Source: an uncultured Clostridia bacterium
Lineage (GTDB): Bacteria > Bacillota > Clostridia > Christensenellales > UBA1242
Assembly (NCBI GenBank): GCA_944348085.1
Contig: CALVMU010000002.1
Location: 4,461-68,460, forward strand
DNA: 64,000 nt
Direction of reading: 5' to 3'
Shown here: piece by piece, positions 269 through 26,894 of the stretch
Position numbering within the stretch: the stretch's first letter is position 1
Layout: every line of letters begins with the position of its first letter
The notes under the pieces: generated by a model
The model's input: only the letters and a program-made list of their open reading frames with translations
The model's database searches: none
What the model was told of the DNA's origin: nothing
Translations under genes and position numbers: made by a program

Positions 269-439
269 TTATCTAATATACTCACTCATAAAATCTTCAT
301 AACTAATACATCTTATCCCAATATCATCACACACTGTAGGCGTCCTAGATGAATTTAGTTTTCGCTCTTCAATAGTTACAACTATTGCATTTTCACACTT
401 AGCCTTAGCTATCACAAAGGGATCTGCAGATGGAGCATA
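269..439 (-). pseudogene. Remnant (C-terminal ~56 codons only, no start codon) of a DUF4411 PIN-like protein
   Basis: The minus strand reads YAPSADPFVIAKAKCENAIVVTIEERKLNSSRTPTVCDDIGIRCISYEDFMSEYIR*. This resembles the ADPxxIA...VVTxE...IPxVC...I.C conserved C-terminus of DUF4411. An in-frame stop lies 7 codons upstream and there is no Met. Confidence 0.4.
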
Positions 440-590
440 GGAAATGATATTTTAAAAATGTATCATTTCTTGATATTTTTCATTTTTAAATAGTTCCTTT
501 ATAAAAATAAATTCGTTTATAAAACTTTTTCTTTAGACTATTATAACACATTGTTAAATTTATGTATTATAAAATTAAAATCAGAAAAAT

Positions 591-1493
591 TTACTTTTGC
601 ATTTCCAACTCATCAAGAATTTTAACTGCACGAATAATTTTATTTTTTATGTCTTTGCACTCATCTTGGGTATATTTATATTCTAAATCATTTATATCTT
701 GTATTATCATTTCTTTATTTTTAATAATAATTTTAGCATGTCCCAAATTATTTCTAATATTATTTAATGATTTCAACAAGTTTATATCCCGATCTGATAT
801 ATTAACTAACCTATATTTTTTAAAGAGTTTTAGCAAATTTATTTTTTTGCACATATCAAATAAATAATTTTTATTCAAAAACAAACTTCTAACATAATCT
901 TCACTAGATTTACACTCGTTGATCTTTTTAGTAAAATTATCATTACCCTCTTCAACCAGTTTATCTACTTCATTTGATATAACTTGTTTTAACTCTTGAG
1001 ATTGTCCCTCATATAATTCAAGTAGAAATTTCCTTAATCTAAATTCAATATCACTATAATTGTGCAATACTACACCTCGTAATGATAATGGGTTAAGTGT
1101 CCTTTTCTCTAATTTTTCTAATATCTTCTCGGTTTTTAAAATTAAATCATCTCGCTTGCATATATACACTCCATCAAGCTGAAATTTATCAATTTTTTGA
1201 AATAAATTTTCATTTGTCGTTGAATATAATATTATATCTGTCAAACTTCTATTGTTATCCCTGATTTCCCTGATAACCTCATGCCCACTAATATCATTAA
1301 CTAAGCTATAGTCTATCAGATATAAATCATAATCCTCAGATTTAACTACTTCCTTATAGTCTGAGCCATTAGACAATTTTATATCTGGAATCAAGCCCAT
1401 AGATTCAACCTTTTTCTTTATTTTTTGATATGTTGAATCTTCTTCATCAAGAATATTATCATCAACTATTAATAATTTAAATTTTATGTCCAT
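591..1493 (-). CDS. Response regulator: N-terminal CheY-like receiver fused to a C-terminal HEPN-like (predicted RNase) domain
   Basis: 300-aa ORF. Receiver hallmarks: LLIVDD (D11/D12), phospho-acceptor Asp in DLYLIDYSL (D61), ILYST (S91/T92) and ICKRD (K113). The C-terminal ~170 aa are helical and contain NIRNNLGHA, the RNxxxH (Rx4H) HEPN signature (R247/H252). The ATG overlaps the upstream gene by 17 nt. Confidence 0.75.
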   Translation of the reverse strand: MDIKFKLLIVDDNILDEEDSTYQKIKKKVESMGLIPDIKLSNGSDYKEVVKSEDYDLYLIDYSLVNDISGHEVIREIRDNNRSLTDIILYSTTNENLFQKIDKFQLDGVYICKRDDLILKTEKILEKLEKRTLNPLSLRGVVLHNYSDIEFRLRKFLLELYEGQSQELKQVISNEVDKLVEEGNDNFTKKINECKSSEDYVRSLFLNKNYLFDMCKKINLLKLFKKYRLVNISDRDINLLKSLNNIRNNLGHAKIIIKNKEMIIQDINDLEYKYTQDECKDIKNKIIRAVKILDELEMQK

Positions 1494-3732
1494 ATGCTAT
1501 TTTCATCCTTAGTCCAAAAGAAAAATTTGTATCTATTAATTCTATTGTTCCATTCATAGATTTTAATATTTTTGATATCGTATAAAGTCCAATTCCTGAT
1601 CCCTCTGTAGAAGTATAACCTAATTTAAATATCTCCTCTTTATTTCTTATAGATTTATTCAACCCGTCCCCATCATCTAAAGCATCTAAAATTAAATATT
1701 TTTCATCATTACTAAAATTTAAATATAAGTTTTTAGCATGAGCTTTATTAGAATTGCTAATTAAGTTTTCAATGACTGCAACTATTTCTGATGCTGAAAA
1801 CTTTAATTTAATTTCTTTGTCCAAATTGTTTGTTATTGTAACTTTCATTCCTAAATTTGGAGATCTATCATATATATTTCTTACATATTCATTGATAAAA
1901 GCTACTAAATCTGAATCTAATTGTATATCTGACTTTAATGAAAAATTTGCTTTTAAACCAAAATTACTTATCGAATATATTTTACTAGCCAAAAAGTCAA
2001 CCTGTGCAAGATTTTTTAAAATATTGTCTTCTTTTTTATTTTTTATATTGTCGAATATTATTTCAATATATTCTTTAATCTTATTTGCGAACAACATATT
2101 CAAATGTATTATTTCTTTAGCTTTTACAAAATCCTCATTTGTCGTATTTTCCAAAAAATAGTTTTGATTTGTTATTCTTTGTAGTTCCTGTTTTGTATCT
2201 TCATGTTGTTTTCTTTGCTCTTCATTTTTTGAAATAAGTTTTCGATTTACTTCTTGTAAATCTTCTACTCTCTTTCTTGTAGAATTAATTAATGATAATA
2301 GCTGTTCATTATTATTTTTTTCGGCTATCAAAGATATTTTATTAAGTGAATTTTGAATTGAAGAATCTGCTACCTTTTTTGAAACTTCTGCAATTATATT
2401 TTCATCATATCTAAGTTCTATCGGATTTGTTTTCTTTGTTATACCAGCAATTTGTTTTACTAGTTTTTCAAAATTTATATTTGCAACACTAAACATTTCA
2501 GAATCAGGATCTCCCCAATCTAAAACATCTACAACATATGTCTCAAGGATCTTCATTTTATCAACAAAAAATTTTTTTAACTCATCTACTTGTCTTGATT
2601 TTATAAATCCCTTGTCTCTACTAGATACTTCAACAAATCCTTTAGCTTCACCATTTATTTCTATTCTTCCTACTAAATCTCTTGTACCAAAATATCTTCT
2701 AGTTCCTTGTTGTTGTCTTAAATTAATGCCAAAGAAATCATCGTCGATTTCACCATATGGTAATATCCTAAATCCATTTTTAAACACGAATATATTCCCA
2801 TATGAAACTTGTGATATTCCCATTATTTTTGAAAACAACAACTTTGCCTTACGATTCATATAAAATAATTTTAAATGAATATCTTTAAGTGTTGTGTAAT
2901 CCTCATTCTTCTCTTTTATATAGAAAACTTCCTGTCCTTTATCATTTAAAGATGTAATTATTTCTTTCCCTATAGGGTCGATGTCCACAGTTAAAGCTAC
3001 TGTTTTAATATTTAATGATTCAAATAAAGTATTCTTTATAACACCATTAACAATATCTCTATCATTATTATACATTTTATCTCTTTCTAACTCTAATTCT
3101 GCATGTAATTCTATTGAAAATTCTGATGAGTTGTCTGTATTTGGAGAAATAAGTTTCATTAACATTCTTTTTAAAGACAATAATTCATTCCTATCCCATT
3201 TTTCCCTTAAATTAGAAATTTTAATTAAAGTTCCTTGCTTAGGAAATGTCTCAATAATAAGATCTTCATATTCAACAGGTATATCTAAAAAACTTTGTTC
3301 ATCAACATTTTCAAAGTTATCCCAATTAATTGAAACATGATGAACCACATCTTCATTATATTTTCGTGTATACAAATCAACAATAGAGCCAACTCTATCG
3401 CATGAAAACCTACCAACACCTTTTGCACCTAATTGTTCTCTTTCAAATTTTATGCCCTTTTTTCTGGCATTCTCAAGTTTTTTGTCAGAATATGCTACAT
3501 TTAACCAATTATTTATTATCTGATTAGAGTCCATCCCCTTCCCATAATCTTGTATTTCAATACTATCTATTTCATCTTTTTTATAATTAAAGGTTATATC
3601 CACCTTTTTTGAGTTCGCATCAAAAGAATTTTTAACTAATTCAAAAATAGCAACAAACTTATTTGTTATTAATTCTTTTCCAATAATATTTTTTAAACCA
3701 GCACTAACTTTAAAATTTAATTTTTTAATCAT
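1477..3732 (-). CDS. Cytoplasmic dual-GHKL protein: N-terminal MORC/Hsp90/MutL-type ATPase module + coiled coil + histidine-kinase core (DHp-like His + CA domain)
   Basis: The ORF-track start (3798) is trimmed to ATG 3732 (MIKKLNF...), which overlaps the methyltransferase stop within ATGATTAA. N-terminal Bergerat motifs: ELVKNSFDA (N-box), DYGKGMD (G1), GAKGVGRFS (G2). The middle is coiled-coil rich (EDLQEVNRKLISKNEEQRKQHEDTKQELQR). Candidate phospho-His lies in EIIHLNMLFANKI. A second, C-terminal GHKL module has NLISNSNKA, DDGDGL and GSGIGLY. I saw no TM segments. Confidence 0.75.
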   Translation of the reverse strand: MIKKLNFKVSAGLKNIIGKELITNKFVAIFELVKNSFDANSKKVDITFNYKKDEIDSIEIQDYGKGMDSNQIINNWLNVAYSDKKLENARKKGIKFEREQLGAKGVGRFSCDRVGSIVDLYTRKYNEDVVHHVSINWDNFENVDEQSFLDIPVEYEDLIIETFPKQGTLIKISNLREKWDRNELLSLKRMLMKLISPNTDNSSEFSIELHAELELERDKMYNNDRDIVNGVIKNTLFESLNIKTVALTVDIDPIGKEIITSLNDKGQEVFYIKEKNEDYTTLKDIHLKLFYMNRKAKLLFSKIMGISQVSYGNIFVFKNGFRILPYGEIDDDFFGINLRQQQGTRRYFGTRDLVGRIEINGEAKGFVEVSSRDKGFIKSRQVDELKKFFVDKMKILETYVVDVLDWGDPDSEMFSVANINFEKLVKQIAGITKKTNPIELRYDENIIAEVSKKVADSSIQNSLNKISLIAEKNNNEQLLSLINSTRKRVEDLQEVNRKLISKNEEQRKQHEDTKQELQRITNQNYFLENTTNEDFVKAKEIIHLNMLFANKIKEYIEIIFDNIKNKKEDNILKNLAQVDFLASKIYSISNFGLKANFSLKSDIQLDSDLVAFINEYVRNIYDRSPNLGMKVTITNNLDKEIKLKFSASEIVAVIENLISNSNKAHAKNLYLNFSNDEKYLILDALDDGDGLNKSIRNKEEIFKLGYTSTEGSGIGLYTISKILKSMNGTIELIDTNFSFGLRMKIAYGHKI

Positions 3733-4930
3733 TGTATAAAAACTCCTTAAATATTTCTGCCAATTGTTCTGCAAACAATGGCGGAACTGCATTACCAACT
3801 TGTGTAAATCTTGGTACGTCTTTTTTCCTTAATTCCCCACCTGTTGTATATTTCCCTTTAAACTGATACCAATCTGGAAAACTTTGAATTCTTGCCAATT
3901 CACGAACTGTTAAAATTCTAGGTTCACTATAATGTACAAAATCATCGGGATGAGTCGTAACTGTTGGAGCTGGGCTATTAGGATCCAACAAAACAACCCC
4001 TCTCCTTTTTAAATTTGGAACCAAATTGTCTGATGGTTTATATCTTTTTCCATGTTCTAAGTGTTCAATCATAAATTTCTGCATTTCTTGGATTTGTTTA
4101 CTATGATTCGCAAATCTATGGCTATCTGGATTTTCGTCACTTTTGATTTTTTTTCTCATAAACCTTTGATATGATGTATTAATATTACCATAATAACCAC
4201 TATAAAAAAACTGTTTACAATCTGGACATTTATAGATACCATTACTCTCTAACAAATCTGAAATAGCATCGCCTACTGTAGTTCTTATATTTAGCTGTTT
4301 TTTCTTGAGAAATTTTAACTTATACTTGTCAAGTTTTTCAAAAAAATCATCTATATTTTTTTTCAAACTTCCAACCAAAATAAATCTTTTTCTTCTTTGA
4401 GGAATACCGTACTCATCCATAAAAATCTCTTTAACTTTTATATTATATCCTAATTTTTTTAATCCTTCAATTACAACTTCCGAGTATTTTATTTTATCTC
4501 CATTATTTAATTTAAAATCTACAGAAATACCATGAACGTTTTCTAAAAGGATATATTTAGGCTTTACGCATTTCACAAACTCTATATAATTATTTACCAT
4601 AGTATTCCTAAAATCACTATGATCCCTTCTTCCAGCCATTGAAAATCCTTGGCAAGGTGGACCTCCTACAACAATATCAATTTCCCCCTTAAGTTTATAT
4701 AATTCTTTCTTATATGTTTTAAGGACTTCGACAATATCTAATTCAGTTCTTGGTAGCCATTGTGGCCAATTAAATTTATTTTTAGAAATTAAGTTAAAAT
4801 ATAAAGTACTAAAAGCATCCTTATTTTTTTCTATCGCAAAAATTCCAGTATATCCGGCATTGCAGAATCCTAAAGAAAGTCCTCCAGCACCTGCAAATAA
4901 ATCAATAAAAGTGTAATTATTGCTTTTCAT
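3725..4930 (-). CDS. DNA (cytosine-5)-methyltransferase
   Basis: All canonical C5-MTase motifs are present: DLFAGAGG (I), GGPPCQGFS (IV, catalytic Cys), LLENV (VI), QRRKR (VIII), RELARIQSFPD (IX), GNAVPP (X). The ORF-track start 4948 is a TTG. ATG 4930 (MKSNNYTFIDLF...) is more likely. Confidence 0.92.
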   Translation of the reverse strand: MKSNNYTFIDLFAGAGGLSLGFCNAGYTGIFAIEKNKDAFSTLYFNLISKNKFNWPQWLPRTELDIVEVLKTYKKELYKLKGEIDIVVGGPPCQGFSMAGRRDHSDFRNTMVNNYIEFVKCVKPKYILLENVHGISVDFKLNNGDKIKYSEVVIEGLKKLGYNIKVKEIFMDEYGIPQRRKRFILVGSLKKNIDDFFEKLDKYKLKFLKKKQLNIRTTVGDAISDLLESNGIYKCPDCKQFFYSGYYGNINTSYQRFMRKKIKSDENPDSHRFANHSKQIQEMQKFMIEHLEHGKRYKPSDNLVPNLKRRGVVLLDPNSPAPTVTTHPDDFVHYSEPRILTVRELARIQSFPDWYQFKGKYTTGGELRKKDVPRFTQVGNAVPPLFAEQLAEIFKEFLYND

Positions 4931-5078
4931 TTTTTCTCCCTTCTTCAACTTTTACAATTTTTTTTATAGCTTCCACAACATATTCATTAATACTTTTATC
5001 ATTTTTAACAGCAATAAGTTTTATTTGTTTATGAAGTTCAGGAGACATACGTATAATTAAAGATTTTGTATTTTTCAT
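4917..5078 (-). CDS. Small ribbon-helix-helix (CopG/Arc-like) protein, candidate controller of the methyltransferase operon
   Basis: 53-codon ORF absent from the track: MKNTKSLIIRMSPELHKQIKLIAVKNDKSINEYVVEAIKKIVKVEEGRKNEKQ*. The beta-strand (LIIRM), helix (PELHKQIKLIA) and helix (SINEYVVEAIKK) pattern is typical of RHH. AGGAG lies 7 nt upstream. The 3' end overlaps the MTase start by 14 nt. Confidence 0.6.
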   Translation of the reverse strand: MKNTKSLIIRMSPELHKQIKLIAVKNDKSINEYVVEAIKKIVKVEEGRKNEKQ

Positions 5079-5343: not shown

Positions 5344-6333
5344 CTAAATCCTAAAATACTTTTGGTTCTTACTGGTTGGTTTATCTGGTTCGGTCATACC
5401 GATTAGTCCGGCATCTAGGGCTGGTTGCAAATAATTTTTTCTAAAACCAACGCGAGATTTTAGGTTTAGTTTTTGCATAAGTTCGGTTGCAGATTGCGGA
5501 TAACTTTCAATAACTTTCATAAGTTCTGTAATTTGGTTGTTTATATGGTTATAGTGATTTCTTGTGTCTGTTATTATATCTTTAATCGCCTTATTTATCA
5601 CATCCAACATAAACACAATAAAAATATTTGATTTCGCCTGACTTGTTGACAATGTTATTGCATTGTAATAATCTTTTTGGTTATCTTTAATAATACTTTC
5701 AATAGGTACCCAAGCAAAGATTGGCTTCCAACTTGCAAGAAACGCAGTTTGCCAAAGTCTTCCCATTCTTCCATTCCCATCACGAAATGGATGGATGAAC
5801 TCAAATTCATAATGAAAAACACTAGACTTAATAAGCATATTTGCCGGGCTAGTCTTTATCCAGTCAAAAAGTTGCCTTAGCTGCTCTGGAACAAACTCCG
5901 CTGGTGGAGCAAGATGAACAACTTTTCCATGCTCGTTATAAACTCCAACTTGTCCTGTCCTTATTTTCCCCGCTTCGTTTACAAGTCCATTCATCATTAT
6001 TCCGTGAATTCTCAATAAATCTTCAATGCTATAAGGATTTATATTTTCAAATTCCTTATAAGCCAAGTTTGCATTTTGAACAGCAACTATATCTTCCTTT
6101 GGTCCAAACACTCGCTTTCCATCAATAACATCTGTCACTTGTTCAATTGAAAGAGTGTTGTTTTCAATCGCAAGAGAAGAATGAATTGATTTAATCCTAT
6201 TTACCCTGCGAAGCCTTGGCAATTTCTCAAGTTTATTAACCCCAGAGAGTCTCCCCAAATTCTCCATAATCTCGGAAACCAACTCCAACATCTCATCAGT
6301 TATTTCATAAGGTGGAATATATTTTTCGTCCAT
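5344..6333 (-). CDS. Fic-family protein (AMPylase-type), class II with N-terminal inhibitory helix, C-terminal winged-helix-like tail
   Basis: Fic active-site motif HPFRDGNGRMGR (HxFx[D/E]GNGRxxR). Upstream SLAIEN fits the [S/T]xxxE[G/N] auto-inhibition motif. Confidence 0.9.
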   Translation of the reverse strand: MDEKYIPPYEITDEMLELVSEIMENLGRLSGVNKLEKLPRLRRVNRIKSIHSSLAIENNTLSIEQVTDVIDGKRVFGPKEDIVAVQNANLAYKEFENINPYSIEDLLRIHGIMMNGLVNEAGKIRTGQVGVYNEHGKVVHLAPPAEFVPEQLRQLFDWIKTSPANMLIKSSVFHYEFEFIHPFRDGNGRMGRLWQTAFLASWKPIFAWVPIESIIKDNQKDYYNAITLSTSQAKSNIFIVFMLDVINKAIKDIITDTRNHYNHINNQITELMKVIESYPQSATELMQKLNLKSRVGFRKNYLQPALDAGLIGMTEPDKPTSKNQKYFRI

Positions 6334-6381: not shown

Positions 6382-7197
6382 TTAATCTCTATAATATTTA
6401 TAATCTTTATTTACTAATGTGTAATCAGATATACCACAATTTGCTTTATTGCCATTATTTTTCATAAATGCTGCAAAACTCATTATCGTATGGTATTCAA
6501 TCTCCTTTATATATTGATGAAACTTAGGATGGATAATCGCATACATAAATTTATTCCACCCTGGTATTTCCTTTCTCCCAACCTTTACTCTATCTCCAAG
6601 TCTTGTTGCACTACCAATGTATAATTCCTTTTTAATTTCATCAATTAAATAATAAACAACATGATTTTGATCTTCATGCTTCTTTAACTCGGAGATATCC
6701 ATCCATCTTGTATATTTCGTAATCATCTGATCTTGTTTTTCTAAGCTTAACCAACCAAACACATTCGAATCAACAAGGTGCTTAAATAAATTATCATAAG
6801 GAGTTTCAACTTTTATAAATGTTGACAATTCAATTTCAGTTTCATTTAGTTTCTCAAAGACAATCACCTCTTGACTTCCGCCAATAAGTTCAGTATGAAA
6901 TTTCCTATTTTTGTTAAGCAATTTTTGGCTTTCTATTGCAATATAAGATTGAATAAATTCTTTTTTTAATACTTTAACAAGTTCAGTATCTAAAAATATT
7001 TGAAAAACTTTTCTTCCTGTTGATTGTAAAACAAAAGAAAATTTCCCGATATATTTTTTATTTTTAAATTTTATGCTAATTTTTCTATGTGTACCCCATG
7101 TCTCTTTATTAACATCTATAAAGTATATCCAATATTTTTTTGGAACAGTAATCCTGCCATCAAATGTGGATTTATCTATTTTTTTATAATATTCCAT
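6382..7197 (-). CDS. GIY-YIG nuclease-domain protein with an uncharacterised N-terminal domain
   Basis: The C-terminal third reads VVYYLIDEIKKELYIGSATRLGDRVKVGRKEIPGWNKFMYAIIH...IKEIEYHTI. This fits GIY...YIG...R...E spacing. The N-terminal ~170 aa (ITVPKKYW..., KISIKFKNKKYIGKFSF) are unassigned. Confidence 0.5.
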   Translation of the reverse strand: MEYYKKIDKSTFDGRITVPKKYWIYFIDVNKETWGTHRKISIKFKNKKYIGKFSFVLQSTGRKVFQIFLDTELVKVLKKEFIQSYIAIESQKLLNKNRKFHTELIGGSQEVIVFEKLNETEIELSTFIKVETPYDNLFKHLVDSNVFGWLSLEKQDQMITKYTRWMDISELKKHEDQNHVVYYLIDEIKKELYIGSATRLGDRVKVGRKEIPGWNKFMYAIIHPKFHQYIKEIEYHTIMSFAAFMKNNGNKANCGISDYTLVNKDYKYYRD

Positions 7198-7662: not shown

Positions 7663-8277
7663 TTATAACATTCTAGAATCATATTTTTTCATATCTTCAA
7701 TAGAGCAATATCCAATAAAACCAAATGTGCCTTCAAATTTGTCAGGTCTCATTGCATAAATTGTCGCTCTTGAATGTCCTTCAATGATTAAAAATTTTTT
7801 ATTATTGCAGGTAATTAGTATTATTGGAGGAAAAGAAATTGTATCGATTATTTTAGTTCCAGTTATAAAAGGCTCATTTGACACACCAAATATTTCCACT
7901 CCATCAGCGATAGTGCTTGCGGCAATTTTAGGTTTGGAAGTCCCTTTGGATAATTTATTCCAATAATCATAATCAATATAAAAAAGTTTCTCTAAGTCAT
8001 TGCGATTAAATTTGACAAATTCCCATTTATGAATATAAGGAAAATTACCAAATAATTCCTTATTGGGATACCCTCTGTATTCCTTGATAATTTTCTTTCT
8101 TAGATTGTTTTCTTCTTTGGAATCCAAATTACCATTAAAAATTATATTTGTATCTAATTTTAGTTGATACAAAATTTGACGCAATTTTTTATCAAATCTG
8201 ATTGAATTTAATTCGCCTTTCAAAAATGTCAATATCATCTCATCTTCACTTGAATCTCTTAATTTTTCCAAAATCAT
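7663..8277 (-). CDS. Hypothetical protein (204 aa), no recognisable motif
   Basis: Long ORF with coding-like composition. No family was recognised by eye. Confidence 0.5.
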   Translation of the reverse strand: MILEKLRDSSEDEMILTFLKGELNSIRFDKKLRQILYQLKLDTNIIFNGNLDSKEENNLRKKIIKEYRGYPNKELFGNFPYIHKWEFVKFNRNDLEKLFYIDYDYWNKLSKGTSKPKIAASTIADGVEIFGVSNEPFITGTKIIDTISFPPIILITCNNKKFLIIEGHSRATIYAMRPDKFEGTFGFIGYCSIEDMKKYDSRML

Positions 8278-12318: not shown

Positions 12319-13992
12319 ATGGATAATAAAACACAACAAAGTAAAAGTGGCATTTTTCAGGCATTTAAACTTTTATGGAACTTTATGAATAAAAAAGAAA
12401 GATTCATATTTGTTTCGTTATCTTTTTTATCTATTGTGCCAGCTCTTATTTTAATCTATATCGCAATGATTCCTAGCATACTTATTGCAAAACTTGCTGG
12501 ACAGTCTTTTTTGATCTTTGGGTTTATTGACTTATCTCACCTTAACAACATCATCTTCTTTCTTGTGGCTATTGGTCTGCCTGCAATATTGTGGATCTTT
12601 GGAATGCTGATATACCGAGGAATAGATATGTTCGCTCGCAAATTGATGCGCACTCTCAACAAGCGCGTCGAAGAAATTTTGCTTCTCGAGCGGAAAAATT
12701 TGGACATCAATATGACTATAGGCGAAGCAAACTATATCGCCAAAAATGCTATAGACAATATTTATTATATTATTGAGCCTTTTTGTTGGACTCTTGTTAA
12801 GTCATTGTTTCTTATGATTTTTATATCAATTCAAATATTTTTGCTAAATGTCTATGTTGGCTTTGCTCTTTTTGGTTCTTTATGCATAATTGGTCTGATA
12901 ATATTTTTGCGAATATATTTTCAAAAAAACATTGTAAAAAATATAGAAAAATCAAATGCAAAAATCGGCAATCACTTTCTGATGACCTTGACAAACTTGC
13001 CAATGATAACAATGTTTAAGTCTAAAACAAAAGAGCTCAAAGAACTCGATAAATTGAATAGTAGTTATTTTAAGCACAATGTAAAACGCGACAATATCAG
13101 TTGCTGGTATTGGATTGTGATGCGCATAATCAAATTTATGAGTTTGGCGGGTATGCTATCGTTATATTATTTCGTCGGTTCACAAACAAATTTGGCAACT
13201 GACCTCGTGCTAATTTGCAGTTTGGTTATCGAAATTTATGCCTATATTGAAGATTGGGGTTTTCAAGTGAGTGATTTGCAGTCGGCAAGCATCAAACTAT
13301 GCAATCTAAAACTGCTCTACCCTGAACAACAAAATATTAAAAAACAATTGTCTATAGTCAATGAAAAAATCAAAAATTCAAAAGTCTGGTCTATCAAAGT
13401 GGACAAATATCATGTCCAACTTGGAGATTTTGAAAAAACTTACAACACTTCATTTCAAAGCGGAAAGGTCTATGTGTTAAGTGGACAAAGTGGCATTGGG
13501 AAAACAACTCTTATCAATGCCATCTGTGGCCTGCGCGAAATTGAAAGTGGTCAACTTATCATCAATAGAAAAGAGGTTGTGCCATCGCTATATGAATATC
13601 GAGACAAAATTTGCTATCTCTTTCAAGAGTCTATATTGTTTGACAGATCAATCGAAGACAACCTTGCCTATCCAGACGACCAAATTAATGACAAAGCAAA
13701 ACAACTTATTGATGAGTTTAACATCAAGAAACTGCTTCTTAGAGACAAAACAACAGCCTATTTTGCAAAATCTCTTTCTGGTGGAGAGAAAAAACGCATT
13801 GAACTGATAAGAACACTAAGCAAAGATAAAGATATATACTTTTTTGATGAACCTACAAATGAACTTGACCCAGCCAATGTTGAAAAAGTTTTGAAAGAGA
13901 TAAAACAACTTGCGCATGACAAAAAGATTGTGATTGTCATATCTCACGACAAACGAGTGCTAAACATTGCCGATAAAGTTATAACGCCTTAA
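12319..13992 (+). CDS. ABC exporter, fused permease + ATPase (half-transporter), paralog 1
   Basis: N-terminal 6-TM domain. Walker A GQSGIGKTT, signature LSGGEKKR, Walker B IYFFDEPT, H-loop SHD. Confidence 0.9.
   Translation: MDNKTQQSKSGIFQAFKLLWNFMNKKERFIFVSLSFLSIVPALILIYIAMIPSILIAKLAGQSFLIFGFIDLSHLNNIIFFLVAIGLPAILWIFGMLIYRGIDMFARKLMRTLNKRVEEILLLERKNLDINMTIGEANYIAKNAIDNIYYIIEPFCWTLVKSLFLMIFISIQIFLLNVYVGFALFGSLCIIGLIIFLRIYFQKNIVKNIEKSNAKIGNHFLMTLTNLPMITMFKSKTKELKELDKLNSSYFKHNVKRDNISCWYWIVMRIIKFMSLAGMLSLYYFVGSQTNLATDLVLICSLVIEIYAYIEDWGFQVSDLQSASIKLCNLKLLYPEQQNIKKQLSIVNEKIKNSKVWSIKVDKYHVQLGDFEKTYNTSFQSGKVYVLSGQSGIGKTTLINAICGLREIESGQLIINRKEVVPSLYEYRDKICYLFQESILFDRSIEDNLAYPDDQINDKAKQLIDEFNIKKLLLRDKTTAYFAKSLSGGEKKRIELIRTLSKDKDIYFFDEPTNELDPANVEKVLKEIKQLAHDKKIVIVISHDKRVLNIADKVITP
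13244..13990 (+). repeat. Near-identical ~750-bp direct repeat, copy 1 (3' part of ABC paralog 1)
   Basis: Aligns base for base with 14924-15670. Reading both copies, I saw only a handful of substitutions. Confidence 0.9.
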
Positions 13993-14001
13993 AAGGAAAA
14001 T

Positions 14002-15672
14002 ATGAAAACAAAGAAAGAGAAAAAAGCCGGTCTTTTCAGCGCGATAAAAATGCTATGGCAATTTATGACAACAAAAGAAAAAGTTGAATTTGTTGTTTTG
14101 ATTTTGTTGTCTTGTTTTCCTGCATTTATAAACATTTACATGTCGATGATCCCTTCTTTGTTGATCGCCAAATTTGCAAATCAAGAATTTTTGATTTTTG
14201 GATTTATTGATTTTTTAGGCTTAGGCTATGTTGAATTTTTCTTTACTATTTTTGGTGTGTTAATTGTTATGTATACAATCAGCATGATTGTTTTGCGCGC
14301 TGTTGATATTTTTACACATAGATTGATGTATAACACCAACAAGCGCATCGAAGAAATTTTGCTTCTCGAGCGGAAAAATTTGGACATTAATATGACTATA
14401 GGCGAAGCAAACTATATCGCCAAAAATGCAGTTGACAATATATATAATATCATTAAGCCTTTATGTTGGACATTTCTGCGTTCGTTTTATTTTTTAATTT
14501 TTGGTTTGATTCAAATATTTTTGTTAAATGTTTATATTGGACTTGTTGTAATTTTCGTGCTCTGCGTAATTGCTTCTATGATTTTTGTGCGAACAAAATT
14601 TCAAAAGATTGTGATCAAAGATATAGAAAAATCAAATGCAAAAATCGGTAACCATTTTCTGATGACCTTGACAAACTTGCCAATGATAACAATGTTTAAG
14701 TCTAAATCAAAAGAAATGGAAGAACTTGGCAAACTAAATAAAACTTTTTTTAAACACAACAAAAAACTTGTCAATATAACCTACTGGTATTGGATTTTGC
14801 TATGCGCAGTTGAATATTTGAGTATTGCTGGAATTATTGTGCTTTTCTATTTTATTGGCTCACAAGCAAATTTGGCTACAAATATTGTGCTTTTATTCAA
14901 CCTGATTTTAAAAGCATACAACAATATTGAAGATTGGGGTTTTCAAGTGAGTGATTTGCAGTCGGCAAGCATCAAACTATGCAATCTAAAACTGCTCTAC
15001 CCTGAACAACAAAATATTAAAAAACAATTGTCTATAGTCAATGAAAAAATCAAAAATTCAAAAGTCTGGTCTATCAAAGTGGACAAATATCATGTCCAAC
15101 TTGGAGATTTTGAAAAAACTTACAACACTTCATTTCAAAGCGGAAAGGTCTATGTGTTAAGTGGACAAAGTGGCATTGGGAAAACAACTCTTATCAATGC
15201 CATCTGTGGCCTGCGCGAAATTGAAAGTGGTCAACTTATCATCAATAGAAAAGAGGTTGTGCCATCGCTATATGAATATCGAGACAAAATTTGCTATCTC
15301 TTTCAAGAGTCTATATTGTTTGACAGATCAATCGAAGACAACCTTGCCTATCCAGACGACCAAATTAATGACAAAGCAAAACAGCTTATTGATGAGTTTA
15401 ACATCAAGAAACTGCTTCTTAGAGACAAAACAACCGCCTATTTTGCAAAATCTCTTTCTGGTGGAGAGAAAAAACGCATTGAACTGATAAGAACATTAAG
15501 CAAAGATAAAGATATATACTTTTTTGATGAACCCACAAATGAACTTGACCCAGCCAATGTTGAAAAAGTTTTGAAAGAGATAAAACAACTTGCAGATCAC
15601 AAAAAGATTGTGATTGTCATATCTCATGACAAACGAGTGTTAAACATTGCCGATAAAGTAGTGCGGTTATGA
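14002..15672 (+). CDS. ABC exporter, fused permease + ATPase (half-transporter), paralog 2
   Basis: Same architecture and motifs as paralog 1. It starts 9 nt after paralog 1 ends and is colinear with it at a constant 1680-nt offset. Confidence 0.9.
   Translation: MKTKKEKKAGLFSAIKMLWQFMTTKEKVEFVVLILLSCFPAFINIYMSMIPSLLIAKFANQEFLIFGFIDFLGLGYVEFFFTIFGVLIVMYTISMIVLRAVDIFTHRLMYNTNKRIEEILLLERKNLDINMTIGEANYIAKNAVDNIYNIIKPLCWTFLRSFYFLIFGLIQIFLLNVYIGLVVIFVLCVIASMIFVRTKFQKIVIKDIEKSNAKIGNHFLMTLTNLPMITMFKSKSKEMEELGKLNKTFFKHNKKLVNITYWYWILLCAVEYLSIAGIIVLFYFIGSQANLATNIVLLFNLILKAYNNIEDWGFQVSDLQSASIKLCNLKLLYPEQQNIKKQLSIVNEKIKNSKVWSIKVDKYHVQLGDFEKTYNTSFQSGKVYVLSGQSGIGKTTLINAICGLREIESGQLIINRKEVVPSLYEYRDKICYLFQESILFDRSIEDNLAYPDDQINDKAKQLIDEFNIKKLLLRDKTTAYFAKSLSGGEKKRIELIRTLSKDKDIYFFDEPTNELDPANVEKVLKEIKQLADHKKIVIVISHDKRVLNIADKVVRL
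14924..15670 (+). repeat. Near-identical ~750-bp direct repeat, copy 2 (3' part of ABC paralog 2)
   Basis: See copy 1. Shorter islands of near-identity also occur at 12655-12760 vs 14335-14440 and at 12941-13030 vs 14621-14710. Confidence 0.9.
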
Positions 15673-20921: not shown

Positions 20922-23900
20922 TTATGCAACTGTCAGTTCGGTCCATCCATCGCTTGTAAGGTCATCAAGTGTAACCGTGCCTGTCCAATAGTCGCTCATA
21001 GTTGAAAGAGCTTTAGGAATCGGACAACTGCTTGAATTGATCCAAGCAAACTCACTGAAATCATCACCTTGATAATATTTTACATCGTTAAGTATATACA
21101 AGTTGTTTGTCATTGTTATGTCAGCAGAGCCAACCAAAGTCAAATCCGCAATCTGTGATATTGCATAGCTGTTTGTTAGAGTGACTGGGATTGTGCTTAA
21201 ACCGATAAGCACTCCATGATTTGTTCCACCATATGTGATAGCGCTTTCAATTCCACTGCCCTCAATTGTAAATGTCACAGGATATGATTCAGTCGAACCT
21301 GAAACATTCAAATGTCCAACAAATCCACCGACATAGTCACCAGAAGAAGTCACACTGCCAAGATTGATGCAACCTGATAATGTGATGCTTGGAAGAGTGC
21401 TTGAATTTGAAACAACAAATTGTCCAATAAGACCTCCTGCATAATTGCCTGTTGCAGAAACTGGTCCATAGTTTTTCAAAGTCAAGATTGTGGAAACTGA
21501 AGTTGAACTTGAAGAATAAGATTGATTCATATAGCCAGCAATTCCACCGACATATTGGGTGCCTGAAACTGCTCCGTAGTTTGCGCTGTTGTTAACTATA
21601 CCATCCCCTGCAATTCCACCAACATATTGGGTGCCTGAAATATCTCCATAGTTGACACAATTTTCAAAGTCACATCCCATAGAGATATATCCAGCAATTC
21701 CACCAGTATTGATTTGGTCACTTGTCACATTGCCATAATTTATACAATTTGTGATGCCTAGAGGAGAATCATAGCTATAAAACACATAATATCCAAAAAT
21801 TCCACCAACGCCAAACTGACTACCGCTTGCCATTAATATGTTTACATCTATGTCTCCGCTGTTATAAGAATTTGAAATACCTGAAGAGCCACCTAAATAT
21901 GCAACCACTCCGCCAACATAATGCGCTTTGCCAGAAATAGAGCCTGTGTTATAACAATTGTTCAAAGTGGTTTCATAGCTATCACCAATCAAACCTCCAA
22001 CATAACCATTTGAACTTATTCCAAAAATATTTCCTGTATTATGTGAATTTGTCAAAGTTGTGTCATCTGTATCACTTACAATTCCGCCAGCATAAGAACC
22101 AGTCACACTGCCCTCATTGTAAACATTGTCGATTGTCAATGGAGATGTTGAATGAGAAAATTGTCCAATAATTCCTCCAGCAAAAGAAAGCCCAAGAATG
22201 TTGCCAGTGTTGCTACAACCAACAATTGAACCACCAGCTGAATCTCCTCCAGCGATAATGCCTCCAGCTATTGAAGTGCCAATCACGACAGCCGAGTTAT
22301 GACAATTTTCGACATTGATTTGAACACTTGGACTTACCAACATCATCATGCCAACAACTCCAGCCGCCCCATCATTTTGTATATATGATTCAGCAATGTT
22401 TATATTTTTAAGAGTTATATTGTCATTTAGTCCAATAACAACACCAAAAAGTCCGCCTATATAGTCAGAACCGTCTGTAAACATTCCTGTGATCTCATAT
22501 CCACCGCCGTCATAGTTTCCAGAGAATATTAAATAAGTTTGATTGACCATGTCAATGTTGCCAATTGCATTCCAAACATGTGCCGAAAGGTCAATGTCTG
22601 CTGTTTGCTTGAAATAGACTCCTGAAAACTGCATTTTCATTATCATTCCGCCGCCCATATCCATCGAGTCACCTTCAGCAAGATTGTTGTTGACAAGATA
22701 GGAAAGATATGCAAGATGCTCAGGTGTTGAGATGATGTAAGGGTCTTCTTCTGTGCCAGTTCCTCCGCCAAAAGAGGTGCCACGATATTCTTCATCAATC
22801 CAATTGCCTTGAATGGTTGAAGTGAAAACAGGATAGCCATCATTTTCGCCTTCAACAAAGCCCCAAAGTGAATAGAAATTCCAGCCACCAGCCCAAGCAT
22901 CACTCAAGTACCATTCCTGTGTTTTTGCAAGCGTGGTGATGTTTGGTTCATACACACCACCCAAATCTTCACCACTGCTAATGTCTGGCAAATCTTGCGT
23001 TGCACCATCACCATAAATCACATTAACTATTGACAAAACACTTACACTGCTTGCTCCACCAATTATTGCACCAACCAAGTTTTCTGCGCCTGTGACAGAA
23101 CCAATATTGAAGCAATTTATTACTGTGAGAGATTTGTTTGAATAAGGAGTATAATAACCCACAAGTCCGCCAGCATAGCCAGTTGATAAAATGTTGCCGC
23201 GATTATAAACGAAAGCCACCACTATAGGGTCTGAACTACTTACATTATTTAGTCTTACAGCATTTCCGAAAACACCACCAACTGCAGAAGTGTTGCTGCC
23301 ATTGGTCAGCTCAACATTTCCTAGATTATAGCAATTTGTTATACTGATAGTGTAATCTATACCACCAGCAAGACCTCCTATATAGCCTTGACCTCCATTA
23401 ACGCTGACATTGCCAATGTTATATGAATTGCTTATTCCTCCTGTGTAACCAGCAAGACCGCCAATGTTTGAAGAATAGTTTGTGCCAACAACATTTGCCA
23501 CAATGTTGCCTTCATTTATGCAAGAAGATATGGTCCCATAACCATAGCCAGCAATGCCTCCCACAGCAAGACCAATATAGGAGATGCTTGAACCTACAGA
23601 TGTTTTTGAGGTTACCGTTATATCTCCATAATTGTTGGAGTTAGCGATATAAGTTGATGTCAATCCAGCAATTCCGCCAACATTTCCTCTAGCCGCATAA
23701 AAAGAACCATTATAAGCACCTTGTGAGTCAATAACGAAAGAAGCAGTGATCGAACCATAATTTTCACAGTTTATTATTTGTGACGAGTTTCTGTCATAAC
23801 CATATATTCCGCCAACTGCAGTTGCGTTAGAACCATAGATATTTCCATAATTCTTACAATTGCTGACTGTGGTTTGACTAACATATCCAGCAATGCCCCC

Positions 23901-26195
23901 TACATATCCACCAAAGCCATAAACATCTGCATAACTGATGCAATTGGTGATAGTGACTGGATACATAGTTGCACCCATGATATAGTCAACTTGCGCAACA
24001 ATGCCACCGACACAGTTTGAACCATAAATTGTCGAGTCTTTAAGAATTATGTTTTCAATTGTGACCGCATCAATAGATGTTGAAGCATATGAGGTGTCGA
24101 TAAGTCCAAATAAACCTTGATTTTGGCTATCACTATTTCCGCCCATCCAATCTTCTTCGTCAATGCTGCCTTCAACAAAAGCAGGAGTTGCAAGGTTTGT
24201 TATCTCAAAATTTTGACCGTCATAGTGCCCAAAGAAATTATCAATAGGATCCCACAGATGACCGCTAAGGTCAATGTTTTGTGTTTGGATGAAATAAGTG
24301 TTTTCATAATGCGTGCCACTGCCTGTCATATATGAAAGATAGGCAAGTTCTGCACCATTTGAAATTTGATATGGCTTGTCTTCTGTTCCGTCACCGCCAG
24401 CAAAAACTTTCGCCCGCACACCTTCATCAGTCCAATAGGTTGCCTCTTCTATGATAATTATAGGATAGCCACCATTTTGCTCAGGGTCAATTGTCCAAAC
24501 AGAAGTAAAATTCCAAGGCTCAGATGAATTCCAATTGCTTTCATTTGTGTACCAATCTTGTGTTTTTGCAAGGTCAGCAATTGTGTCAAGATGGCTTGCA
24601 TCAATGCTGGAAGAATCGGCATTGTCTGCCCCTACAGCTGCAAGTGAACTTGATGCATCACCACCCCAATAATTTTTTAAAATTTCAATATCGCCATAGC
24701 TTAAACTGCCAACAATTGCACCACTTGCACCACTTGTTCCAGAGTTTGTGACAGAGCCAAGGTTGAAATTGTTGATAAGTTTGAGAGGTGCTAAAGTTAA
24801 TGAATCTCCACTTGTGCTTCCACCATCGCCTTTCACAGCCCCCAAAATTCCACCTACATTTCCAGAATCAAAAAGGTTGGTGACTGTTGCCGCATTATAA
24901 TTATTTGTTATATTGATAACATCATCAGGGATTATTGTCTCTTCACTGCCAACACTAATCATTGTTGCACCTGCAGAAGTTGTAAAGCCTACAATTCCGC
25001 CTGCGACAGCATAAGAAAAAGCATCGGCACCCACAGTAACATTGCCTCTGTTATAACAATTTTTGACATCACCAGAAACATAATATATATAAATAGAAGA
25101 ATCTCCACCGGTAATATCAATATTTGCCATTAATATAACTACTGCACTATTTGTTCCAACAATTCCTCCTGCGACACAATCTCCAACTATTTCGCCATAA
25201 TTTGCACATTTTGAGATTGTTCCGCCAGTTCCGCTTATTCCGCCTACATAAATACCAGTAATTTGACCATTGTTGATGCAACCTGTAATTATTCCAACAG
25301 TAAAGCCTGAGATGCCACCTGTTCCTACTCCATTAGCGATATTTCCGCCACCAGAACCAATACAATCGGCAGTTAAAGGACTGTTATTTACTGAATTTTC
25401 AACTCTTCCACCATAAAGCGTTCCAATTATCCCTCCAAAATTTGAGCCTTTATTTTCCATATCAGTGATAGTGCTATTATTGACACAATTTTCTACAACA
25501 GTGGCATAACCAAGACCAACTATTCCGCCTGCGCTTCCACCAAACGCATAGATTTCTGCATAACTTATGCAATTTGAAATTGTCATATAAACTTGTGACC
25601 AGTCGAGGCCTGAATCATTCACGTCTAAAGTTCCACCTGCAATAATAGAACCAGTAACACCTTGTCCAAAGATAACTGAATCGCGTAAAACAATGTTTTT
25701 GATTATAATTCGATTTGTGCTGTAGCTTGCAATTTCCGCTTCATGCCCAAACAGTCCAGCAAACTCTACTGGTGAGCTTTCTGTGCCAACATAGATGCCT
25801 GAAATTTCAAATCCGCCACCATCGAAAGTTCCGTAAAATGAATCAGTATTTGATGTGCCTATTGGCGTCCAATAATAGGCAGACATGTCAAGATCAGTTG
25901 TGACAAGAAAGTTTCTCCCTATGTCACTACCACTATTTATTTGATAAGCAAAATAAGCAAATTGTTCAGGTGTTGAAATCAAATATGGATCATCTTCAGT
26001 TCCAGTTCCGCCAGCATAAGACGTGGCATAGTTTCCGCTGTCAGTCCAATTTCCGCTGTTTGTTGGTCCATCAACAGCGATTGTTTGTTTTTCTTCTTTT
26101 GGAAGCGACAAAAAGTATAATCCTACAGAGCAAAAAGCAACGAAGATTGAAAGCAAAACAATCAGCACGATTGATTTTTTGGAGACCTTTTCCAT
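20922..26195 (-). CDS. Giant surface protein (1757 aa): N-terminal signal-anchor plus three tandem GLUG-motif beta-helix super-repeats
   Basis: N-terminal TM helix (IVLIVLLSIFVAFCSVGLYFLSL). Dozens of GG[IL][IVA]G...N[CS]xN.G.[IV] units fit the GLUG motif. Each module opens with GG.GTE.DPY.IS....LAY(L/F)(S/A)Y and closes with LAKTQ[DE]WY...W...NGGYP. Confidence 0.85.
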   Translation of the reverse strand: MEKVSKKSIVLIVLLSIFVAFCSVGLYFLSLPKEEKQTIAVDGPTNSGNWTDSGNYATSYAGGTGTEDDPYLISTPEQFAYFAYQINSGSDIGRNFLVTTDLDMSAYYWTPIGTSNTDSFYGTFDGGGFEISGIYVGTESSPVEFAGLFGHEAEIASYSTNRIIIKNIVLRDSVIFGQGVTGSIIAGGTLDVNDSGLDWSQVYMTISNCISYAEIYAFGGSAGGIVGLGYATVVENCVNNSTITDMENKGSNFGGIIGTLYGGRVENSVNNSPLTADCIGSGGGNIANGVGTGGISGFTVGIITGCINNGQITGIYVGGISGTGGTISKCANYGEIVGDCVAGGIVGTNSAVVILMANIDITGGDSSIYIYYVSGDVKNCYNRGNVTVGADAFSYAVAGGIVGFTTSAGATMISVGSEETIIPDDVINITNNYNAATVTNLFDSGNVGGILGAVKGDGGSTSGDSLTLAPLKLINNFNLGSVTNSGTSGASGAIVGSLSYGDIEILKNYWGGDASSSLAAVGADNADSSSIDASHLDTIADLAKTQDWYTNESNWNSSEPWNFTSVWTIDPEQNGGYPIIIIEEATYWTDEGVRAKVFAGGDGTEDKPYQISNGAELAYLSYMTGSGTHYENTYFIQTQNIDLSGHLWDPIDNFFGHYDGQNFEITNLATPAFVEGSIDEEDWMGGNSDSQNQGLFGLIDTSYASTSIDAVTIENIILKDSTIYGSNCVGGIVAQVDYIMGATMYPVTITNCISYADVYGFGGYVGGIAGYVSQTTVSNCKNYGNIYGSNATAVGGIYGYDRNSSQIINCENYGSITASFVIDSQGAYNGSFYAARGNVGGIAGLTSTYIANSNNYGDITVTSKTSVGSSISYIGLAVGGIAGYGYGTISSCINEGNIVANVVGTNYSSNIGGLAGYTGGISNSYNIGNVSVNGGQGYIGGLAGGIDYTISITNCYNLGNVELTNGSNTSAVGGVFGNAVRLNNVSSSDPIVVAFVYNRGNILSTGYAGGLVGYYTPYSNKSLTVINCFNIGSVTGAENLVGAIIGGASSVSVLSIVNVIYGDGATQDLPDISSGEDLGGVYEPNITTLAKTQEWYLSDAWAGGWNFYSLWGFVEGENDGYPVFTSTIQGNWIDEEYRGTSFGGGTGTEEDPYIISTPEHLAYLSYLVNNNLAEGDSMDMGGGMIMKMQFSGVYFKQTADIDLSAHVWNAIGNIDMVNQTYLIFSGNYDGGGYEITGMFTDGSDYIGGLFGVVIGLNDNITLKNINIAESYIQNDGAAGVVGMMMLVSPSVQINVENCHNSAVVIGTSIAGGIIAGGDSAGGSIVGCSNTGNILGLSFAGGIIGQFSHSTSPLTIDNVYNEGSVTGSYAGGIVSDTDDTTLTNSHNTGNIFGISSNGYVGGLIGDSYETTLNNCYNTGSISGKAHYVGGVVAYLGGSSGISNSYNSGDIDVNILMASGSQFGVGGIFGYYVFYSYDSPLGITNCINYGNVTSDQINTGGIAGYISMGCDFENCVNYGDISGTQYVGGIAGDGIVNNSANYGAVSGTQYVGGIAGYMNQSYSSSSTSVSTILTLKNYGPVSATGNYAGGLIGQFVVSNSSTLPSITLSGCINLGSVTSSGDYVGGFVGHLNVSGSTESYPVTFTIEGSGIESAITYGGTNHGVLIGLSTIPVTLTNSYAISQIADLTLVGSADITMTNNLYILNDVKYYQGDDFSEFAWINSSSCPIPKALSTMSDYWTGTVTLDDLTSDGWTELTVA

Positions 26196-26241
26196 ACCCC
26201 CTCCTTAAAAAGAAAAATAAGAAAACTTATAATCTATTTTT

Positions 26242-26270
26242 AGTATACCAAATTTCGACAAATTCTACAA
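26242..26270 (-). promoter_or_regulatory. Candidate promoter of the GLUG-protein gene
   Basis: The minus strand has TTGTAG, a 17-nt spacer and TGgTATACT. The RBS AAGGAGG lies before the ATG at 26195. Confidence 0.45.
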
Positions 26271-26340
26271 ATATATTTAAAAATTTTTCAATATTTTTTA
26301 CAAATAAAAATCGCTTGAAAAATATAGACAAAAAAATGAA

Positions 26341-26373
26341 AAATAAAAAAATAAGCCAAAAAATTTGACTTAT
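26341..26373 (-). terminator. Candidate terminator after ndk
   Basis: Minus-strand AUAAGUC-loop-GGCUUAU (7 bp including one G-U pair) followed by a long U-run. Confidence 0.45.
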
Positions 26374-26384
26374 TTTCTTAAGTT

Positions 26385-26831: not shown

Positions 26832-26894
26832 TTTCCCCTCCATATTTTCATTTTAGCATAAATTTACAGAATTTTGACATTTTTTTTGCATTTT

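Follow-up and report, generated by a model that had tools for sequence, protein, structure and literature searches.

A soluble histidine kinase with an N-terminal GHKL clamp, encoded in a widespread cassette between a cytosine methyltransferase and a REC-HEPN-like response regulator

The kinase and its two GHKL modules

We analysed a stretch of 64,000 nucleotides (nt; hereafter the window) from an uncultured Clostridia bacterium (GenBank assembly GCA_944348085.1, contig CALVMU010000002.1, positions 4,461 to 68,460 of the forward strand), in which a protein of 751 amino acids (aa) carries two GHKL ATPase modules. Its gene is the second of three in a mobile cassette that consists of a C5 DNA cytosine methyltransferase, this GHKL-clamp histidine kinase, and a response regulator in which a receiver (REC) domain is joined to a HEPN-like domain. 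The composition and conservation of the cassette suggest that it may act as a methylation-linked defensive two-component system. The three genes lie in the window as follows; for each, the evidence for the assignment is given in brackets.

3725..4948, minus strand: C5 DNA cytosine methyltransferase, 401 aa from the ATG at 4930 (DNA_methylase, 2.8e-57; dcm TIGR00675)
1477..3732 including the stop codon, minus strand: kinase, a GHKL-transducer-coiled coil-DHp-CA protein of 751 aa (open reading frame [ORF], two Pfam GHKL domains, full-length homologues)
591..1493, minus strand: response regulator of 300 aa, with REC at aa 4-113 and an all-helical HEPN-like domain at aa ~135-299 (Response_reg, AlphaFold2 [AF2] model, invariant residues)

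The kinase gene starts at the ATG at 3732, which has an AAGGAG Shine-Dalgarno sequence 9 nt on its 5' side and whose Met is where the homologue alignments begin; a TTG at 3798, 22 codons further 5', is a possible alternative start. A promoter scan gave no useful information in DNA so rich in AT (39 promoter-like sites versus 41 expected), nor did a terminator scan. The kinase was divided into five parts, all on the minus strand.

3133..3732, aa 1-200: N-terminal GHKL (Bergerat) ATPase domain (HATPase_c_3, NCBIfam BbrUII/HgiDII, motif conservation)
2413..3132, aa 201-440: transducer-like middle domain (AF2 strands and helices, Foldseek alignments, invariant residues)
2143..2412, aa 441-530: helical linker and coiled coil, or signalling helix (AF2 helices 444-456 and 459-472 and the start of 476-564)
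1945..2142, aa 531-596: DHp two-helix hairpin (conservation of H543, profile alignment to HK853, AF2 helices 476-564 and 569-596)
1480..1908, aa 609-751: histidine-kinase catalytic (CA) GHKL domain (HATPase_c, sequence matches in the PDB, motif conservation)

The first-pass annotation, made from the letters of the window alone, had described two complete sets of N-box, G1 and G2 motifs about 600 residues apart in one soluble protein. Both sets were found, about 620 residues apart on a single polypeptide. In the N-terminal domain they read E31-x3-N35-x2-D38, D62-x-G64-x-G66 and G102-x-K104-G105-x-G107, and in the CA domain N656/N660 (N box), D686-x-G688-x-G690 (G1), F702 (F) and G711-x-G713-x-G715 (G2). 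In an alignment of 108 homologues from many phyla, every motif residue of both sets was at least 97% conserved, indicating that neither GHKL module is a chance match or a degenerate copy. The two objections raised with the original description, namely that the N-terminal motifs belong to a degenerate fold or that a frameshift had joined two ORFs, were both excluded by the homologues: all motifs are kept across the 108 sequences, and more than 120 homologues of 740-780 aa hold both GHKL domains within one ORF of the same length. No transmembrane segment was detected in the kinase (Kyte-Doolittle maximum of 1.14 over a 19-residue window), and no PAS, GAF or HAMP domain was matched with Pfam in the kinase or in 30 family members, so that the description of a soluble protein without an obvious sensor domain also held. 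These results confirmed one soluble protein with two intact GHKL modules, each predicted to bind ATP.

For the N-terminal domain, Pfam HATPase_c_3 matched aa 26-151 (E 3.6e-22, 79 bits versus a cut-off of 25). The NCBIfam profile for BbrUII/HgiDII restriction enzymes matched aa 15-208 (E 1.1e-22), and the PADLOC model REase_II matched the N-terminus in 13 of the 30 family members. By these profiles, the N-terminal GHKL domain is closest to the BbrUII/HgiDII-type restriction enzymes, which form a paraMORC-like group. The BbrUII/HgiDII match was confined to the GHKL part, covering profile positions 11-197 of 659 with 80 bits versus a cut-off of 550.

An AF2 model of the kinase, computed with 30 diverse homologues as input, placed the GHKL domain at aa 1-~200 and a mixed strand/helix region at ~201-440. 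When this model was searched against the PDB with Foldseek, it matched Hsp90 (N-terminal plus middle domains), SMCHD1 (6mw7), MORC3 (6o1e), MORC2 (9cdh) and the LN40 fragment of MutL (1nhh), with E-values from 5e-12 to 6e-10. The alignments spanned 415-508 columns and covered the N-terminal module jointly with some 230 residues beyond it, indicating that the match takes in the ATPase together with a transducer-type second domain. The medium-confidence model therefore supported an N-terminal half built of a GHKL ATPase and a transducer as in MutL, GyrB, Hsp90 and MORC, in line with the earlier suggestion that an S5-like transducer might be found at residues ~150-450. Of the MORC/Hsp90-type label first given to the N-terminus, the structural side stood (Hsp90, SMCHD1, MORC2/3 and MutL), whereas the nearest relatives by sequence were the BbrUII/HgiDII-type enzymes, a paraMORC-like group. 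Because the best named matches were the BbrUII/HgiDII restriction enzyme, MutL and MzaB, "paraMORC-like" is a safer label than MORC. The most conserved stretch of the whole kinase lies within the middle domain, where aa 311-375 (nt 2608-2802) are near-invariant with the pattern YG..F.KNGFR..PYG...D......R..QG..R..GTR...GR.......E..SR..G. Residues K297, K318, R322 and S371-R372 of the middle domain are candidates for gamma-phosphate sensors or DNA contacts.

The linker and coiled coil (aa 441-530) were poorly conserved in sequence. In the AF2 model a single continuous helix of 89 residues (aa 476-564) leads into the DHp, in agreement with the long coiled coil of the first description, and is followed by a return helix (aa 569-596) and an alpha/beta CA domain (aa 609-748). 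The putative phospho-acceptor H543 (codon 2104-2106) was present in 108 of 108 homologues and was the sole invariant residue in this variable helical region. None of the Pfam models HisKA, HisKA_2, HisKA_3, HWE_HK, His_kinase and HEF_HK matched at E<=1 in the 30 members, and the DHp was recognisable only through profile alignment to solved kinases. The family profile aligned over DHp and CA with HK853, ZraS and VicK (E ~1e-14) and put H543 on the His of ISHELRTPL in HK853 (2c2a/3dge; E 3e-14), which is the known phospho-acceptor H260 of that kinase. The CA domain was matched by HATPase_c at aa 649-733 (E 2.4e-14, 54 bits versus a cut-off of 26.4), and its sequence matches in the PDB were PhoQ, HK853, ZraS and VicK, with E-values down to 8e-15. 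According to these alignments, the C-terminal half is a complete class I kinase core, comprising DHp and CA.

The regulator and the conserved cassette

The regulator was matched by Response_reg in Pfam (E 2.1e-07), with its C-terminal half unannotated. D61 (codon 1311-1313), at the end of beta3 in the REC domain, occupies the phospho-acceptor position. In two alignments, of 35 and of 59 regulators, the homologues were only 18-27% identical to the window copy, and D61, R78, Y90, R139, R247, N248 and H252 were invariant, with G140 nearly so. The AF2 model of the regulator was confident (pLDDT 90.8, pTM 0.85), and its C-terminal domain comprised helices 135-162 and 166-195, an insert at 200-226, helix 234-251, a beta-hairpin at 254-265 and helix 276-299. 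The invariant R247-N248-x3-H252 (nt 738-755) lies at the end of helix 234-251 and is followed by the hairpin and the final helix. HEPN RNases have a four-helix core in which an insert separates helix 2 from helix 3 and the motif closes helix 3, and Csx1 has a hairpin directly after the motif (Anantharaman et al. 2013, PMC3710099); the position of the regulator motif and its helix/insert/hairpin layout fit this description, and R247-N248-x3-H252 has the HEPN pattern Rx4-6H with a polar residue after the R.

Weak Pfam matches to HEPN_Swt1, Abi_2 or HEPN_Apea were obtained for 8 of the 35 regulators, and Csx1 and CARF_HEPN appeared below threshold in PADLOC. The family consensus also matched HEPN_MAE_28990 below threshold (0.022). 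A profile of the isolated C-terminal domain gave only spurious S15 matches among PDB sequences, and an hhalign comparison with an AbiJ-NTD4 protein gave nothing. On the basis of its motif, model and layout, the regulator is likely, but not proven, to be a REC-HEPN RNase.

No helix-turn-helix or other DNA-binding output domain was found in the 35 regulators. This result bears on an improbable alternative, in which the proteins form an ordinary two-component system that controls neighbouring restriction-modification genes and the N-terminal GHKL domain senses the ATP level. The authors who described a sister family, HEF_HK, speculated in this direction (PMC8011034); the kinase and REC domains are intact, and restriction-modification genes are frequent in the neighbourhoods. 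However, the regulators carry the invariant RNxxxH instead of a DNA-binding domain, their output domain changes quickly (26% mean identity) and gives way to another domain in other subfamilies, and among the linked modification genes the C5 methylase alone is constant, while the flanking restriction-modification genes vary.

The invariant H543 and D61 are, in turn, hard to explain without phosphotransfer, and they weigh against a still less probable alternative, an atypical type II restriction enzyme of which the protein would be the ATP-dependent motor or recognition subunit. The kinase-like C-terminus would then serve dimerisation or ATP binding, with no phosphorelay. Such an enzyme would explain why the N-terminus finds its best NCBIfam and PADLOC matches among restriction enzymes, and R.EcoUTORF4938P, which has the same design, is listed as a putative restriction enzyme (PMC2441816). 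Yet the BbrUII/HgiDII match, as described above, ends with the GHKL part and falls short of its cut-off, and no nuclease domain was detectable in the three cassette proteins.

In distant subfamilies (on an Enterobacter plasmid, on Campylobacter pTet, in Acinetobacter baumannii and in Burkholderia glumae), the protein encoded downstream of the kinase lacked RNxxxH. The four downstream proteins (L086 6096-7166, L087 6183-7175, L088 5961-7898 and L089 6295-7485) all carried PxCD[LIY] instead, and only those of Enterobacter and Campylobacter also had FLKDIxARFSxYYARQGxP near the C-terminus. The downstream proteins of the distant subfamilies thus appear to carry an alternative effector domain, as in a sensor-kinase chassis with interchangeable effectors.

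The methylase and kinase genes share an overlap of 8 nt, and the kinase and REC genes one of 17 nt. A homologous C5 methylase was found directly upstream on the same strand in 82 of 85 loci, and a homologue of the REC protein directly downstream in 83 of the 84 loci having sequence there. Across 74 loci, the methylase was the most conserved of the three proteins (51% mean identity), followed by the kinase (43%) and the REC protein (26%), which evolved fastest. Pairwise divergences were correlated between kinase and REC protein (r=0.88), as would be expected for a cognate pair, and between methylase and kinase (r=0.56).

The 8-nt overlap and near-constant adjacency of the methylase and kinase genes also suit the main rival of the defensive relay, an unlikely guard model that keeps the relay and changes its input. 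By analogy with the anticodon nuclease PrrC, which EcoprrI holds latent, the clamp-kinase would not read DNA but monitor the methylase through a physical complex, and a phage anti-restriction factor that inhibits or depletes the methylase or S-adenosylmethionine would release the RNase. The GHKL-plus-transducer modules of MutL, MORC, GyrB and SMCHD1 mostly work on DNA, which speaks against such an input, as does the finding that the methylase lies elsewhere or on the other strand at three loci (L045, L074 and L081) and likewise on pTet. The moderate co-divergence of methylase and kinase is in keeping with the guard model, and restriction-modification loci with a HEPN nuclease inside them are known (PMC3710099).

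An exhaustive profile search (E<=1e-30) recovered 2,459 clusters of kinase relatives at 50% identity, and relatives were present in at least 571 species genomes in a scan that used one genome per species. Among the matches listed, the hosts belonged to Bacillota, Bacteroidota, Spirochaetota, Patescibacteria, Planctomycetota, Nitrospirota, Acidobacteriota, Pseudomonadota, Fibrobacterota and Cloacimonadota. The first-pass annotation had called a GHKL clamp driving a GHKL kinase an unusual signalling logic and had proposed a phylogenetic survey of the fusion. The survey found the fusion widespread across many phyla, and its architecture had been published in 2008 and 2021; the word "unusual" overstates the case, as the design is neither rare nor undescribed. 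It is the conserved operon, which that annotation had overlooked, that indicates function. A phage-borne origin of the cassette was considered and rejected, as there were essentially no phage matches.

The flanks of the cassette vary from locus to locus and include GmrSD, EVE-HNH, an NB-ARC NTPase, Fic, type I/III-like restriction-modification genes, Mrr/AspBHI, AbiH, HipA, RhuM and integrases; these neighbourhoods are defence islands or mobile elements. At L090 (1-6498, in a 4.4-Mb genome) the cassette lies directly downstream of Tn7-like tnsB, tniB, tniQ/tnsD and tnsE, as transposon cargo.

In the window, the start of the methylase gene is overlapped by one further small ORF.

4917..5078, minus strand: ribbon-helix-helix (RHH) ORF of 53 aa (HicB, 1.8e-9; Antitox_RHH; ParD)

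This ORF is possibly a local controller protein. Its membership in the cassette was rejected, because it was limited to the closest relatives (L003-L005) and absent in 80 loci from other species. Close to the cassette on its upstream side, at 5344..6333 on the minus strand, lies a gene for a Fic plus Fic-like_C protein (PADLOC SoFic, 1.2e-42), which is also found at L003 and L004. The ORF at 6382..7197 (minus strand, 271 aa), with weak matches only to GIY-YIG (0.056) and PDC-S14 (0.0057), recurs beside Fic at L004, and the ORF at 7663..8277 (minus strand, 204 aa) had no family match in Pfam, PADLOC or NCBIfam. Right behind the regulator gene, at window positions ~270..440 on the minus strand, a short frame that ends in ...AKAKCENAIVVTIEERKLNSSRTPTVCDDIGIRCISYEDFMSEYIR and a stop codon resembles the C-terminal remnant of a truncated gene, possibly PIN-like or DUF4411.

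Farther along the window, a 1257-aa protein is encoded at 26895..30668 on the minus strand and joins DUF4011 to a helicase of the Upf1-like AAA_11/AAA_12 type and, at the C-terminus, to a restriction-endonuclease domain (MTES_1575). The next ORF on that strand, of 1757 aa (20922..26195), had no Pfam match at E<=0.001, and the region 20922..30668 may be a second defence module. The genes at 12319..15672 on the plus strand encode tandem paralogous ABC exporters of 557 and 556 aa, each with ABC_membrane and ABC_tran, and look ordinary.

A proposed defensive relay

We propose that the cassette is a defensive two-component system linked to methylation: the clamp would sense, the kinase relay and the HEPN RNase execute. 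In this scheme the methylase would mark the host's own DNA. The dimer formed by the N-terminal ATPase and transducer would close in an ATP-dependent manner when invading DNA gives a cue, in the simplest case unmethylated target sites or, alternatively, the loss or inhibition of the methylase. Closure of the clamp would travel along the coiled coil to the DHp and so drive the kinase; the CA domain would phosphorylate H543, and the phosphate would pass to D61 of the regulator. Phosphorylation of the REC domain would then dimerise the regulator and assemble a composite HEPN RNase site, and RNA cleavage would keep the infected cell or the invader from growing and so abort the infection.

Several lines of evidence led us to this relay. 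In the kinase, conservation in the 108 homologues is 97-100% for H543 and for the motifs of the two GHKL modules, the canonical DHp and CA align to HK853 with the His in register, and the N-terminal half matches the ATPase modules of Hsp90, SMCHD1, MORC and MutL. At the level of the operon, the cassette is near-universal among the loci, its genes overlap, and the divergences of kinase and regulator run in parallel. The regulator lacks a DNA-binding output and carries the invariant RNxxxH together with sub-threshold matches to the HEPN clan, and in distant subfamilies its effector domain is swapped, the modular pattern of defence systems. Finally, the cassette sits in defence islands or mobile elements, the nearest GHKL relatives are restriction enzymes, and Detocs provides a precedent for phage defence by a relay from a kinase to a REC-effector.

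Other results weigh against the proposed relay. H543 has no acidic residue behind it, unlike the HisKA kinases, and the confidence of the kinase AF2 model was moderate (mean pLDDT 72.8, pTM 0.50). For the regulator, the top Pfam match of the family consensus was HEPN_Swt1 at 7.9e-4 and 20.1 bits, below the cut-off of 27.5, and in Foldseek searches of its model against the PDB and BFVD the REC domain dominated and only REC matches were returned. Neither the kinase nor the regulator is covered by a model in PADLOC 2.0, whose MzaB, REase_II and TmtA matches were at the level of the GHKL domain only. In addition, no DNA nuclease domain was detected in the three cassette proteins with Pfam, PADLOC or NCBIfam. 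Because the cassette lacks a DNA-acting nuclease, it is not a classical restriction-modification system.

With both sides considered, we place the chance that the whole chain, from methylase to RNase, is right at about even. The fuller statement, that the cassette is an unnamed and widespread immune system in which an ATP-driven DNA clamp of the MORC/MutL type reads cytosine methylation to tell self from invader, reports it by a His-Asp phosphorelay rather than by DNA cleavage and switches on a HEPN RNase, is more tentative and falls somewhat short of even.

The architecture of the protein is already in the literature, and everything said here of what the cassette does is what we infer. If the proposed relay is true, this would be the first histidine kinase with a GHKL clamp for an input domain, and one module would unite three themes: self-marking by a methylase, clamps of the MORC/MutL type, and the two-component phosphorelay. 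The cassette would then count as a restriction-modification system with a two-component pathway, leading to abortive infection, for its "restriction" arm, and other clades would fit different effectors to this chassis. The module is small, is present in hundreds of species from more than ten phyla and has clear residues to mutate (E31, H543 and N656 of the kinase, and D61 and R247/H252 of the regulator). Consequently, the question posed in 2021, what role two-component-like elements play beside methylases, becomes directly testable. The answer may also bear on how the eukaryotic MORC and SMCHD1 clamps couple the state of DNA to downstream signalling.

Comparison with known systems

The closest published relatives are the HEF_HK proteins. 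HEF_HK (PF19191) and its partner Response_reg_2 (PF19192) were defined by Bellieny-Rabelo, Pretorius and Moleleki (2021, PMC8011034), who reported that proteins composed of HATPase_c_3, HEF_HK and HATPase_c show 91.6% linkage to REC-like genes and have C5 methylases nearby, and who suggested a paraMORC origin and a sensor role for the N-terminal GHKL domain. The present clade shares with them the soluble HATPase_c_3 + DHp + HATPase_c layout, the adjacent REC-like gene and the linked C5 methylase. A protein of A. baumannii that matches HEF_HK weakly aligned with the kinase family over 646 columns (hhalign 99.8%, E 3e-30), and the conserved block GFRI...G...D falls within this alignment. PF19191 itself matched none of 30 members of the clade at E<=1, and PF19192 matched 1 of 35 regulators (0.026) versus 29 of 35 for PF00072 (Response_reg). 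By profile alignment, then, the present clade is homologous to the HEF_HK family over its full length but lies outside the family's defining Pfam models. The two also differ at the DHp His, which has no acidic residue behind it here, in their partners, which carry PxCD[LIY] in the distant subfamilies and are HEPN-like with RNxxxH here, and in their hosts, since the published HEF_HK set is mostly from Proteobacteria whereas the present clade is mainly from Bacillota and Bacteroidota among the matches listed.

The same architecture had been noted earlier in R.EcoUTORF4938P, a putative restriction enzyme in REBASE that combines an N-terminal GHKL domain with a second one, of the histidine-kinase type and bearing N, D, F and G motifs, at the C-terminus (Orlowski & Bujnicki 2008, PMC2441816). 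R.EcoUTORF4938P, R.HgiDII/BbrUII and R.NmeAIP (NF050001) all have an N-terminal GHKL domain beside a C5 methylase, as in the present cassette. The likeness of BbrUII/HgiDII to the kinase ends after the GHKL domain, and a nuclease domain is absent here. R.NmeAIP fuses HEPN (Ymh) directly to the GHKL protein, whereas the present system would connect the two through a separate regulator and a predicted phosphorelay.

With the MORC and paraMORC proteins (Iyer, Abhiman & Aravind 2008, PMC2292703), the kinase has in common the GHKL plus S5-like transducer module, and both occur beside DNA methylases, in defence loci, and with sporadic lateral spread. The described paraMORC1-5 carry nuclease, TIR or other C-terminal domains and no DHp-CA kinase (PMC2292703); paraMORC3 is the GHKL-Shedu protein VcSduA (PMC12137116). 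Fusions of paraMORC to Ymh (HEPN) occur in restriction-modification loci (PMC3710099), and by analogy the present system looks like such a paraMORC-HEPN pairing distributed over two proteins with a phosphorelay between them.

For the relay itself, the nearest precedent is Detocs, in which a relay from a kinase to a REC-effector was shown experimentally to act as phage defence (Rousset et al. 2023, bioRxiv 10.1101/2023.01.24.525353). The logic is alike, in that a cytoplasmic sensor kinase phosphorylates a REC-effector that kills or arrests the cell and whose effector domain can be swapped. Detocs differs in sensing through TPR (DtcA), in having a REC protein that serves as a buffer (DtcB) and an effector (DtcC) that is mostly a PNP ATP-nucleosidase, and in being without a methylase or a GHKL clamp. 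Correspondingly, no TPR, second REC gene or PNP was found in the cassette, nor was there a Detocs match in PADLOC. The anticodon-nuclease systems PrrC-EcoprrI and RloC couple a latent HEPN RNase to a DNA-modification system and an ATPase sensor (PMC3710099), as is proposed here; their ATPase is of the ABC/Rad50 type and fused to HEPN, with no phosphorelay, unlike in the present system.

In a literature search, we found no named defence system that unites GHKL, histidine kinase, REC/HEPN and cytosine methylase. One figure legend in the DefensePredictor paper names HATPase and REC, and its text gives no match to the present system. To the published families, the present analysis adds a large clade outside their Pfam definitions, a near-invariant three-gene cassette and, probably, a HEPN RNase as its output.

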